Shown here piece after piece: positions 22,220-25,574 of a DNA stretch of 64,000 nucleotides. The stretch is from NCBI GenBank assembly GCA_042408215.1, contig JAYFMW010000017.1, positions 192,001 to 256,000 on the forward strand, in the 5' to 3' direction. The translations under genes were made by a program, and so were the position numbers. Numbering within the stretch: the stretch's first letter is position 1; every line of letters begins with the position of its first letter. Source of the stretch: Microcoleus sp. GTDB taxonomy: Bacteria > Cyanobacteriota > Cyanobacteriia > Cyanobacteriales > Microcoleaceae. The notes under the pieces were generated by a model. It made no database searches. It was given only the letters and a program-made list of their open reading frames with translations, and was not told the DNA's origin.

Positions 22220-22528
22220 TCAATTATCAACATCGGTGAACAGGGCTGACAAATCTCGATAACCACTGACAACTCGAAATATTTCTACATCCTGTCCGAT
22301 CGGCATATAGAGTATAAGATAGTTATCCATCGGGAGACTGCGTAGACATGGCAAAATCTCGTCTCGTTGTCGTCCAAGGTTGGGAAACTGAGCAATTTTA
22401 GCCAATTTTGCTTCGAGCTTGCTTAAAAAGCGATCGGCTTTATCGAGTCCAGATTGACTAGCGATGTAATCTGCAATTTGCTCAATGTCTTGAATTGCGG
22501 GTTCAGTGAGGCGAAATTGTGGAGTCAT
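22220..22528 (-). CDS. parE: RelE/ParE family toxin
   Basis: AIQDIEQIADYIA, FPNLGRQR, YLILY, RVVSGYRD. Confidence 0.9.
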   Translation of the reverse strand: MTPQFRLTEPAIQDIEQIADYIASQSGLDKADRFLSKLEAKLAKIAQFPNLGRQRDEILPCLRSLPMDNYLILYMPIGQDVEIFRVVSGYRDLSALFTDVDN

Positions 22529-22794
22529 GGTTCTAATGAAGTGTAGCGCGATCGCAGGTTGGCTCGAATTTCTGCCATTGCAGTTACACCGTCTACGACT
22601 TCGCCGCGTTGGGATGCTTGCTCACCAATTAGTGCATCTCGTTGGAGTTCTTGCAGTCGTCCTTGATAAATGTCTTCCTGTTGTTCGAGTAGTTGAATGG
22701 CTGCGAGGATGACTTCGATCGCACTTTTGTATTTGCCAGTCGTGAGTTGACGCTGCACGAGGGCTTCGACTTCAGGTGACAAAACAATTTGCAT
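22525..22794 (-). CDS. parD: ParD-like antitoxin
   Basis: QLTTGKYKSAIEVI, GEVVDG; 4-nt overlap with the toxin. Confidence 0.88.
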   Translation of the reverse strand: MQIVLSPEVEALVQRQLTTGKYKSAIEVILAAIQLLEQQEDIYQGRLQELQRDALIGEQASQRGEVVDGVTAMAEIRANLRSRYTSLEP

Positions 22795-23032
22795 GGCGTT
22801 TGAGAGGAAAAGTGTTAATTCTATTGTAGGCGATTCACGCTCGGCATAGCTCCGCTCGCGCGTACTTCAGTTAGATTTTTTGGATGAACGAATCGCACCC
22901 CTACACTGACTATTATATAATTATCAATACCATTAACGGCGAAGCCAATGCGTTTTGATACCTACATCCAGTCAATTCAGAACAATCTCCAGCGGGGAAG
23001 CGAGCGCACCGATCTATTCAAATCAACGCTAA

Positions 23033-23338
23033 TTAATCTTCCCCTAACTCTGAAAACAATAACTCCAAGTCTCGATCGCCCCGCAGCACGCGAGCAATAT
23101 CAATCCCGTCCGATCTGGGGTAGTAAAAAATTAAATAATCCCTAACAATAAATCCGCGCAAGTTGGGGGATAACCTCTCATAGCGTTTGCCCATATTGGG
23201 AAATTCGGCGACAAGTTTACATTTTTGACGAATTGCATCAAAAAGCTCGCTGGCCGCCCTGGAACTATTGCCAGCAATGTACTCGCAAATATCATTCAAA
23301 TCTCGGACAGCTTGATCTGAAAATGTATAACTGTTCAT
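23033..23338 (-). CDS. parE: RelE/ParE family toxin
   Basis: AVRDLNDICEYIA, FPNMGK, YLIFY, RVLRGDRD. Confidence 0.9.
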   Translation of the reverse strand: MNSYTFSDQAVRDLNDICEYIAGNSSRAASELFDAIRQKCKLVAEFPNMGKRYERLSPNLRGFIVRDYLIFYYPRSDGIDIARVLRGDRDLELLFSELGED

Positions 23339-23589
23339 GCCCCTGACTTTTCTATGCGATCGATCTTTTCTTGAATTTTGGCAAACACAAGTTCTCCATC
23401 TGTCACTTGTCCCTGAGCAATTTGTGCAGTTCCAACGGCTATTTTCTGGCGGAGTTCTTCGATGCGTTGTTTCCGTTCTCTTAAAAGTGCGATCGCTTCT
23501 CCAATTATTTCTTCAGCGCTGCCATATTTTCCGCTTTGAATTTGCGATCGAATAAACTCTTCGTATTCCGGCTTTAAGACAATATTCAT
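23335..23589 (-). CDS. parD: ParD-like antitoxin
   Basis: QIQSGKYGSAEEII, GQVTDG; 4-nt overlap with the toxin; AGGAG RBS. Confidence 0.88.
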   Translation of the reverse strand: MNIVLKPEYEEFIRSQIQSGKYGSAEEIIGEAIALLRERKQRIEELRQKIAVGTAQIAQGQVTDGELVFAKIQEKIDRIEKSGA

Positions 23590-24212
23590 TGACTTGCTCC
23601 TTTAAATCACAGAAACGTTACTGCACGATCGTGACATCTTTTTTAAATTAGCTTAGACCTTGTAGGGTGCCACGGGTCGTAGGCGTAAGCCGGGGCGAAG
23701 CCATCGCCCCAAAGGCTAAGGTAAACCCTGTGGGCCGTGGCACCCTACCCATTGGTGTCAACTTAAGCCTGAAACCCTTGGTATCTCTCGCTTTTACCTA
23801 AGTCTAGATCCCCCTAAATCCCCCTTAAGAAGGGGGACTTTGATCGAACTCTTATCCCCCCCGAATGTAGGGGCGGTGCCCCCGTGCCCGCCCTCGGTTA
23901 GGGGGGATCGAATTCTATGCAGCTTCATAAAAAATTGGTATAACAATAAATTGGATTTTAGGTTATTTCCCAACCTATGCTAAGCTGTTCGGCATTTAAA
24001 CTCCTCCGCGTAGGGTGCGTCAGTATTATGAGGTTTTCCGTTTCAACTTTGCTAATTGTTACAACCCGCAAATAGCGGGGCAGATACTACAAAAAACTAC
24101 GAAGAACGAGCCGGAAACCGATGATAGCGAGTGCCAGGTATCGGAAACGTAGAACAGGCATGGCTTCGTGATTTTATTGCCTGTAATAAATCTTTATGAA
24201 ATCCTGAAACGC

Positions 24213-25574
24213 TTAGATGTTACACTTTACAAGTCTCGACGCGAGAGAAGAAGAAACACCAAACCCCTTCCCCATCATCAATAGACACATCTCCAACCCA
24301 AACTGATAATAAAAAACCCCACACGGGAGGTGAGCTTCTGGTGCTTTCTCTGAAAAAGTGATCTCTTTGTAGTACAGCCCTGAGTTATTTTTTCTCCAAC
24401 CTACCTTGTCGCTAAACGCTTCCCATACTTTTTCATCATATTCCCTAGTTCCCCCCAAACTTTGATAGATGCGCTTCTGCACGCTAAAGCCGAAGCGCCC
24501 ATTGCTGTATTGTACCCAAAGTTGGTCAATGGTACGCAAGTCCTCGCAGGGAAAATTATCAATACTTTCTAATTCTGAATTCAGCCATCCTTCTTCTTCC
24601 CTACCCGCCACCTTCAACATCACTCTCGCCGTTTCCTCATCGGCTTCTTTCCATTTTTTAGCCGCCAATAAATTCCGCAAGTTTGTATAATCCATTCCCA
24701 CGGCTGAAATCAATTGTATCTCAGGAGGCGCTGGTTTTGGCTCAGGGGACGGTGCTAATGCTGTCAATACTTGTTCTGCTGTCCATCTTTTTGATCGCTC
24801 TTTTTCCAAGCATCCTCTGACTATCGCCGTGAAGGGTTCTGGTATTTTTGACCAGTCTATTTCTGGCTGTTCTTCCATAATCTTTTTCATTAATTCTTGG
24901 TCTGTGTTTCCTGTGAATGGTAGAGTTCCTGTCAGGATTTCTGCTGTCATGATTCCCAGTGACCACATATCCCATCCTGTTCCTACTACTCCCTGATAGG
25001 ATTCTGGGGGAACATAGGATGGTGTACCTTTTATATCTTGGGTTCTCAGCGAGTTGGTGCCGATTTCTCGCAGCAGTCCCAAGTCGGATACTTTCCATTT
25101 ATCCGCTGCGTATAGCAGGTTGGCTGGTTTGATGTCTCTGTGGACTTTTCGCGGATCTGAATTGTGTAGGTAATTTAATACTGCTGCTGTGTCTCGGACT
25201 ATTTTTTGTACTTCTGTTATGGAGAGTTTTCCGGTTTTTAGTTTTTTTTCTAGGGTGATTGTGGCGATTTCCATGACTATGAATAAATATTCGTCTTCTT
25301 TGACTTCGCAGCAGCCTACTGTGTAGCTACGGATGATGTTTTCGTGTAACAGGTTGGCTGCTGCTCTTATTTCGTTTAGTTGTTTTTTGGCTTTGGTTTC
25401 ATCTTCTTCTAAGGCGATTAGTTTGATTGCTACTTCCCTGATGAAATCGTCTTTGATTACTTCATCTGCTTTGTATACGGCTCCATATCCTCCACATCCT
25501 AGGTATTCTTCCAGGTAGTATTGTTTGTTGACTGTTTCGCCTTGTAGTCTTCTCCAGTGTCTTTCTGGGTACAT
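24213..25574 (-). CDS. Ser/Thr kinase fused to a C-terminal GUN4-like domain
   Basis: LGCGGYG, VAIK, HRDIKPAN; GUN4 LLAAKKWKEADEET, TIDQLW..SNGRFGFSVQ, VGWR, HLP. Confidence 0.92.
   Translation of the reverse strand: MYPERHWRRLQGETVNKQYYLEEYLGCGGYGAVYKADEVIKDDFIREVAIKLIALEEDETKAKKQLNEIRAAANLLHENIIRSYTVGCCEVKEDEYLFIVMEIATITLEKKLKTGKLSITEVQKIVRDTAAVLNYLHNSDPRKVHRDIKPANLLYAADKWKVSDLGLLREIGTNSLRTQDIKGTPSYVPPESYQGVVGTGWDMWSLGIMTAEILTGTLPFTGNTDQELMKKIMEEQPEIDWSKIPEPFTAIVRGCLEKERSKRWTAEQVLTALAPSPEPKPAPPEIQLISAVGMDYTNLRNLLAAKKWKEADEETARVMLKVAGREEEGWLNSELESIDNFPCEDLRTIDQLWVQYSNGRFGFSVQKRIYQSLGGTREYDEKVWEAFSDKVGWRKNNSGLYYKEITFSEKAPEAHLPCGVFYYQFGLEMCLLMMGKGFGVSSSLASRLVKCNI

Follow-up and report, generated by a model that had tools for sequence, protein, structure and literature searches.

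The kinase-GUN4 fusion gene of a Microcoleus genome ends in a hypervariable coding segment, and the observation of such gene ends has been confirmed; they are real, widespread and selected. On balance, with a little better than even probability, the segments arise through a domesticated RAYT-like HUH nuclease, which would nick the DNA at the 3′ boundary of the segment, after which the gene-side end would be trimmed, refilled mostly without a template and resealed. The window analyzed here is a stretch of 64,000 nucleotides (contig JAYFMW010000017.1), and coordinates given without a contig refer to it.

The Target Gene and Its Variable End

The gene end and its surroundings contain the following features:

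24213..25574, minus strand: kinase and GUN4-like fusion gene of 453 amino acids, the target gene (Pfam Pkinase and GUN4)
24762..25514, minus strand: protein kinase domain, amino acids 21-271 (Pfam PF00069, E 9.7e-47)
24321..24704, minus strand: GUN4-like core, amino acids 291-418, up to the HLP motif
24332-24324, minus strand: HLP codons, the equivalent of SynGUN4 His206-Pro208 (numbering as in PMC1084334)
24252..24323, minus strand: hypervariable G/T-rich insert, i.e., the 69 nt of the preliminary description plus the 3 nt preceding the fixed block
24247..24251, minus strand: TCTTC, the first fixed bases, with the sharp 3′ boundary taken from the position profile and junction counts
24213..24246, minus strand: three-frame tail, made up of a palindrome (24246-24234) and three staggered stops
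24229, 24222, and 24215, minus strand: TAA stops of the three-frame tail, 7 nt apart
24204..24225, minus strand: imperfect second hairpin after GTAA/GTAG, the pairing of which is only partly kept across loci (36-86%)
24131..24142, minus strand: conserved 12-nt motif of the GATACCTGGCAC type, also found behind cyanobactin precursors
24042..24152, plus strand: 3′ remnant, about 36 codons, of a convergent RAYT-like HUH nuclease gene, identified by DNA comparison

A recount of positions 24255-24323 agreed exactly with the composition given in the preliminary description, the 69 nt being 30 T, 27 G, 10 A, and 2 C. The abrupt switch relative to the gene body that it reported also stands, since G and T make up 57 of the 69 insert bases against 41.8% in the body (binomial p 4e-12), where the best 69-nt window reaches only 42 G+T. 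The low-complexity peptide, the palindrome and the three TAA codons 7 nt apart that it listed are all present in the window. The stop-n4-stop-n4-stop motif occurs 6513 times in this genome; such spacing is thus common by chance, and only its conservation across loci counts. The TCTTC block is a proposed nick site, read as part of a ladder of CT steps, while the 12-nt motif, which occurs twice in this genome, is a candidate binding site of the nuclease.

A repeat of the GTAGGGTGCGTCA type occupies 24009-24024, immediately in front of the truncation point of the nuclease gene, and repeats resembling it are found after the tail at several further loci. Two ParD/ParE-type toxin-antitoxin pairs are located downstream (22220-23589, with Pfam confirming 23033-23589). 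Small toxin-antitoxin-like genes are often found after the tail where the nuclease is gone.

The assembly of this genome (G000) is 99.98% complete and consists of 30 contigs. It contains six GUN4 matches: a canonical one, another whose tail is ordinary, and four that are variable-ended. Both flanks of a paralog on contig C6 are 96-97% identical to the window gene, while its insert is unrelated, longer and in another frame. Two copies on contig C30 read the third frame, so all three frames are used in this genome. The paralog at C30:488264 has a G/T-rich insert and a degenerate tail, and a long array of heptamer repeats follows its stop codon. The anchor is present at only 2-3 gene ends in this genome, all of them belonging to GUN4 genes, and no extra anchor copy was found in the assembly.

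Inserts in Other Cyanobacteria

The 36-nt tail was matched in 46 of the 61 genomes of the genus. A 19-nt pattern was found in at least 122 stretches, with Nostoc, Anabaena, Microcystis, Microcoleus, Leptolyngbya, and others among the matches listed. The anchor gave 152 matches, of which 137 could be parsed and 15 could not, and merging of near-identical inserts left 132 distinct loci; these insert samples are selected by the anchor pattern, and related loci are not independent. The inserts are 36-159 nt long, the fixed 7 nt included, and are read in the three frames at 59, 37, and 36 loci. The preliminary description had stated that GUN4-domain proteins end in three different tails, and this is indeed the case (55, 36, and 34 loci, with 7 others). 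All three frames are closed within 15 codons in 116 of the 132 loci, which is the conservation that counts for the stop triplet. The alignment of GUN4 3′ ends that it proposed revealed C-poor, non-alignable inserts of variable length in three frames. An alignable segment of constant length in a single frame, which it had named as evidence to the contrary, is the opposite of what paralogs and homologs display in front of the conserved tail. In a control set of canonical GUN4 genes the tail was constant in 30 of 30 loci.

The inserts of the 132 loci contain 3348 G, 2631 T, 1407 A, and 931 C (G40/T32/A17/C11 in per cent). This bias is equal at every codon position, and the four-fold sites have G43 T31 A17 C10 in the inserts compared with A29 C27 T25 G20 in the gene body. 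Since the bias is the same at all codon positions and at four-fold sites, it arises from how the DNA is made, and a protein-level cause was rejected on these grounds. The number of stop-free inserts is 128 out of 132, while 53 would be expected, indicating that read-through is under selection.

Nineteen pairs of loci share at least 145 of 150 upstream bases, and in 14 of these the insert similarity is below 0.7 (two of the 14 involve the L266 duplication). Genome G326 contains neighboring units in which the GUN4 end, the tail and the nuclease are near-identical and the inserts unrelated. Such replacement bears on the proposal that the nuclease only spreads or duplicates a cassette of GUN4 plus tail, the loop being a tolerant, G-rich segment that changes fast by ordinary slippage, recombination and single-strand damage while diversifying selection acts on it. 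That many loci lack the nuclease fits this proposal, as do the allele families L102/L261-L263 and L253/L255, which evolve by substitutions and small indels, and the loci L270 and L220, whose inserts are partly alignable (z 4.4) between identical flanks. However, complete insert replacement between nearly identical flanks is difficult to reconcile with it, as are a boundary that is sharp to one or two bases, a bias that is the same at four-fold sites, the lack of a deamination-type template nearby and a tail kept usable in three frames. Cassette spread as the whole explanation is therefore considered unlikely.

Clusters of GUN4 genes with differing N-termini and inserts are found at G326:C1:494000-513000 (L354) and at the plasmid locus L306, where the ends are near-identical and followed by a variant tail without the palindrome. 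The tail is also found behind non-GUN4 sequence at L069, L070, L050:893, L083, L161, and L170. At L070 the DNA upstream of the tail reads like the end of what we take to be a C-type-lectin (FGE-sulfatase) domain.

In each of four lake metagenomes, the boundary showed differing loose ends rich in G and T, and read depth dipped over the insert. Several different inserts were found per lake sample in the assembled contigs, and these may be strains or paralogs. Viral contigs contained no anchor matches; they had four distant RAYT loci, from which GUN4 was absent.

Boundaries and Traces of Recopying

The profile of the 3′ boundary is at background at position -8, reaches 78 and 70% at -7 and -6, and is 92-98% fixed from -5. 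Both composition steps leave a T after a CT unit. When it comes to the two fixed anchors postulated in the preliminary description, the 3′ one is sharp at the DNA level, while the 5′ one could not be upheld; it is eroded in L200 and L208 and is not sharp in the DNA, and selection on the HLP motif is probably what maintains it. The palindrome is present here but is not required, as both the G326 units and L197/L199 have a broken version of it. Its seeming invariance is partly due to search patterns that selected for it. The same broken copies, together with the lack of covariation, weaken the palindrome as a candidate recognition site.

Copies of upstream DNA of at least 11 nt are found inside 6 of the 132 inserts (0.7 expected), always on the same strand and never on the opposite one. 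Internal repeats of at least 12 nt occur in four inserts (0.44 expected), and pieces of the anchor are repeated within the inserts of L197 and L201. In L266 a parent allele is found together with a degenerate copy of the whole anchor, some 19 new bases rich in G and T, and an anchor that is intact. Exact anchor duplications do not point to one particular cut position, and anchor-like hexamers inside the inserts are at chance level (4 vs. 3.0). Shared prefixes and shared suffixes are equally frequent when all insert pairs are compared (11 and 11), and a prefix is retained only in close pairs (L136/L220 and the L266 family).

These junctions might also be created if the nuclease cuts and the insert is pasted together from single-stranded fragments, such as oligonucleotides, foreign DNA or sister chromosomes, by repeated strand transfer. 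It has been reported that TnpA-REP joins any 3′-OH to T (PMC8266576) and recombines substrates in vitro (PMC3333891). Pasting would not need a polymerase, and none of the specialized ones searched for was found; the anchor duplications would fit joins between two cut sites. On the other hand, inserts from many genomes match this genome, the only host searched as a whole, as often as shuffled sequences do (3 vs. 2.7 matches of at least 18 nt), the window insert has no second match longer than 15 nt in this genome, and a strand-fixed G40/T32 composition is hard to obtain from natural DNA. Pasting thus appears improbable as the main source of the inserts.

A Convergent Nuclease Gene

The preliminary description concluded that any machinery would act in trans. 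It is likely to act in cis instead and not to be an RT, being encoded by a convergent HUH nuclease gene. When all ORFs within 6 kb of 80 anchors were clustered, only one neighbor recurred besides the target and its antisense frame, an oppositely oriented gene of about 255 codons. It is found whole or in pieces at 22 of the 80 loci, without exception in the opposite orientation, and in most cases 76-131 nt separate its 3′ end from the anchor. In the set of 132 loci, the gene is complete at 14, partial at 38 and without trace at 52, while 28 are too short to score. In the reverse search 18 of 21 RAYT loci face a GUN4 gene, the other three being fragments, and the nuclease gene was found in none of the 30 canonical GUN4 loci. 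Copies are few per genome, at most five matches when fragments are included, and nearly always face a target. Alleles are shared in 0 of 16 cases beside a whole nuclease and in 17 of 113 otherwise (p 0.13, not significant), and damaged anchors are shared more (8/31 vs. 13/131, p 0.03, the loci being non-independent).

The partner protein is recognized by Pfam as Y1_Tnp (E 4.7e-19) and contains the HUH, W, and Y-x3-NP motifs, but scores below the cut-off of the NCBIfam RAYT model NF047646 (70.6 vs. 80). Its AF2 model has a pLDDT of 84, with TnpA-REP (4er8) as the top Foldseek match, and by its motifs it belongs with subclass 2.1 as tabulated in PMC6006769. According to that paper, REPs were not found for RAYTs of subclass 2.1. 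An IS200/IS605 insertion sequence was rejected as the identity of the gene, as the copies are few and face a target, and NF033573 gave 23.9 bits against a cut-off of 55. Relatives with 45-55% identity (P0003, P0006, P0007, P0012, and P0017) have cluster members that are labelled Actinomycetes and Gammaproteobacteria MAGs.

In the window, the region 24042-24251 has 84% DNA identity over 212 nt to the whole-gene locus L356, while protein comparison of the remnant with the more distant copy at L081 gave no alignment. The remnant ends 60 nt beyond the stop of the GUN4 gene. Since the nuclease is reduced to a remnant and a search of this genome gave no intact copy from the clade, the allele in the window has probably been frozen. 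Another scrap of the nuclease gene, at G000:C26:44038-44124, lacks an adjoining GUN4 gene. The other RAYT of this genome (C17:685459, 27% identity) belongs to a distant clade in a quick tree.

The preliminary description also proposed a search for machinery. A template, an RT, a polymerase or a primase did not emerge from it; the recurring HUH nuclease neighbor did. Neither a Y-family polymerase nor an AEP primase was found in any of five RAYT-bearing genomes, and no RT class is common to the five. The flanks of the 132 loci contained no general template according to three models (deamination, A-to-N, and sloppy-copy). With local-template models 7-13 of the 132 loci scored above z 3 for each model, and the strongest same-strand cases were the known upstream duplications.

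Could the nuclease itself be the writer? In that case the HUH protein would add nucleotides or short oligomers by means of its clade-specific C-terminal extension. There is neither a recurring accessory gene nor a specialized polymerase common to the genomes, and the Thg1 3′-5′ polymerases are the next Foldseek matches after the Y1 transposases. However, the Thg1 match is weak (TM ~0.39, rmsd 12 Å, E 1e-3 or worse) and is to be expected from the shared palm-like fold, and the same-strand duplications point to a polymerase that reads a template. Writing by the HUH protein is thus highly unlikely.

The statement that this is not a classical DGR holds, as no template, Avd or DGR-type RT was found and both length and frame vary. 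A DGR-like RT acting in trans might still copy an adenine-run template with errors and slippage. The G/T-rich, C-poor output resembles misincorporation opposite adenine, which counts in favor of such an enzyme. Avd is found in two of the five genomes, though far from their known RAYT loci. Moreover, cyanobacterial DGRs diversify similar kinase fusions (PMC7517822). Against this, no template repeat was found in this genome by ungapped A-to-N, short BLAST and anchor scans, a pattern of an A-run plus anchor matched only 2 of 301 genomes (L071 and L072), Avd was not found in this genome, G326 or G433, and no RT motif lies near any of the 80 anchor loci. The four RTs of this genome look like group II intron proteins, and the only RT match in G433 reads as an RT-Cas1 fusion. 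A DGR-like RT is thus very improbable. At L343 (G208:C1:1658546) a multicopy RT of the group II intron type is located about 2.5 kb from a GUN4-nuclease unit.

The Variable Loop in the Protein

The homologous core up to GHLP is common to this protein and to canonical GUN4/Ycf53 (PDB 1Y6I; PMC1084334). Relative to SynGUN4, the insert follows the position of Pro208 and stands in place of the last part of the alpha6/alpha7 loop. In SynGUN4, Leu210, Arg214, and Arg217 line the porphyrin pocket, and Arg214 is needed for porphyrin binding (PMC1084334). While the stretch after GHLP that contains Arg214 is constant in the canonical protein, it is replaced by the variable loop here, and porphyrin binding should therefore not be assumed. 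In the AF2 model the core is confident and residues 133-155, corresponding to the insert, have low confidence (pLDDT <50), while the fixed tail in the window frame is predicted as the last helix (model residues 157-164). Judging by homology, the variable loop may bind a ligand, in which case the protein would be a variable receptor. GUN4 fusions have been counted among the effectors of conflict systems (PMC7159879; PMC8195603).

Other Targets of the Nuclease Clade

A quick tree of 60 proteins contained a 33-row clade with an SH-aLRT support of 96. Its members face GUN4 (27), cyanobactin (4), a double-Gly-like peptide (1), and a trypsin-domain gene (1). Within the genus, 15 retrieved loci with at least 43% identity face four GUN4 genes (one truncated), eight cyanobactin precursors, two double-Gly-like peptides without a family hit, and one trypsin-domain gene. 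The identity of the cyanobactin precursors was confirmed by TIGR04446 and TIGR03678 at one locus each. Tandem precursors keep the leader and a FAGDDAE-type end and differ in their cores, and the 12-nt motif is found about 115 nt after most of them. The bias of the cores is mild (T105 G94 A77 C69 in 10 cores, some leader included). A transposase beside a cyanobactin precursor (PMC6162287) and transposases near cyanobactin clusters (PMC4603692) have been described, and the accessible text of these papers gives them no role in diversification.

At L278-L285 most of the tandem cyanobactin precursors, which differ in their cores, have a fragment from the 3′ part of the nuclease gene behind them, along with the 12-nt motif, and the array ends at a whole or broken nuclease copy. 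The short peptide genes at L277 and L290 face the nuclease; their leader is double-Gly-like, while their 3′ part is rich in G and contains an internal duplication, and they gave no family hit. At L272 a trypsin-domain gene faces an intact nuclease and the GUN4 part is missing. Beyond the stop codon of this gene lie a stretch rich in G and T and the tail's downstream half.

It is conceivable, with a probability somewhat short of even, that this one clade of HUH nucleases is a general diversifier that needs neither RT nor template and creates random sequence of free length, in a manner resembling junctional N-addition. It would then be the common source of GUN4 loops and of cyanobactin and prochlorosin cores.

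Proposed Mechanism

Sequence comparison shows that the two genes are convergent, that the variable segment has a sharp boundary on its 3′ side and a fuzzy one on its 5′ side, and that unrelated inserts lie between near-identical flanks. It further shows that the bias does not depend on codon position, that stops are selected against, and that the tail can be used in three frames. Related enzymes are reported to cut between C and T, to stay bound to the T and to join any attacking 3′-OH to it (PMC8266576), and the freed 3′-OH can also prime synthesis (PMC8266576; PMC3333891). The boundary pattern, as judged from the DNA alone, is compatible with such cleavage and strand transfer.

In the favored model, the nuclease would bind an element in the DNA close to the 3′ end of its own gene and nick the coding strand of the target between C and T in TCTCTTC, staying on the 5′ T of the tail. 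The gene-side 3′-OH would be trimmed back to a variable extent and then lengthened, for the most part in the absence of a template (G>T>A>C), by default by a housekeeping polymerase, and the extension would sometimes slip back onto nearby DNA. The nuclease would then join the new 3′-OH to the tail, and replication would fix the allele. Selection would retain the stop-free alleles, while the three-frame tail would provide the last helix at any length. The product would be a library of binding-pocket loops on kinases and other signaling or conflict proteins. A mirror-image version, with a nick and a C/A-rich extension on the other strand, may apply instead. Several findings speak against the model: a trace of the nuclease is absent in 52 of the 104 scored loci, no writing enzyme is common to the five RAYT-bearing genomes, the duplications do not fix the cut site, prefixes and suffixes are shared equally often, the link between allele sharing and nuclease loss is not significant, the cyanobactin cores are only mildly biased, and the different inserts of the lake samples may be strains or paralogs.

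Comparison with Known Systems

The HUH-Y1 fold, the motifs and the low copy number of the nuclease are shared with REPtrons (PDB 4ER8; PMC3333891; PMC8266576; PMC6006769). The boundary fits their C-T cleavage chemistry, and in REPtrons variable linkers adjoin the cut (PMC3333891; PMC8266576; PMC6006769). However, as far as these sources describe them, REPtron repeats spread genome-wide, while the variable DNA described here codes for protein, is present in a single copy and consists of new sequence. GTAG-tagged REPs multiplied over this genome were not found, GTAA/GTAG and the hairpin being only partly paired.

Like the DGRs of cyanobacteria (PMC7517822), the present genes have a hypervariable C-terminal binding region, encode multidomain proteins of kinase type and occur as dispersed paralogs. 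They differ from the DGRs as these are described in the accessible text in having no RT, Avd or template repeat, in varying in length, frame and every position, and in the fold, which is GUN4 here and C-type lectin there (PMC7517822). The known bacterial diversifiers of a single region are few, and all of them need a template or donor cassettes.

The closest parallel is found in marine picocyanobacteria, where procA faces tnpA-REP and diversification has been proposed; the authors called this link unique to picocyanobacteria and noted in an addition that their evidence does not speak strongly either way on causality (Laurenceau et al., bioRxiv 10.1101/2020.03.09.984088). Both systems have a RAYT of subclass 2.1/group 1 as judged by motifs, facing genes whose spacing is conserved, numerous C-terminal fragments, intergenic DNA that is conserved as well, and an indel-rich variable 3′ region. 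The target there is a lanthipeptide core, while here it is GUN4-like, cyanobactin, trypsin-domain, or a peptide of no family, and the nuclease clade spans many cyanobacterial families. A nick boundary, a base bias, a three-frame tail and a protein-domain target are absent from the accessible main text on procA-tnpA-REP. In the full text searched, most subscription literature lying outside it, neither hypervariable GUN4 tails nor a template-free diversifier linked to an HUH protein were found as the subject of a paper.

The data point to new sequence of free length in a binding pocket, at a gene end that survives frameshifts. The reading of cyanobacterial "GUN4-domain" fusions would thereby shift from pigment sensors to variable receptors. 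The origin of hypervariable RiPP cores becomes testable with one small enzyme, one junction and one catalytic mutant, and a general diversifier, if true, would form the basis for a two-part library generator in vivo. The arrangement itself is common with the unproven procA-tnpA-REP pairs, but if the template-free writing is true, the system would be categorically new.
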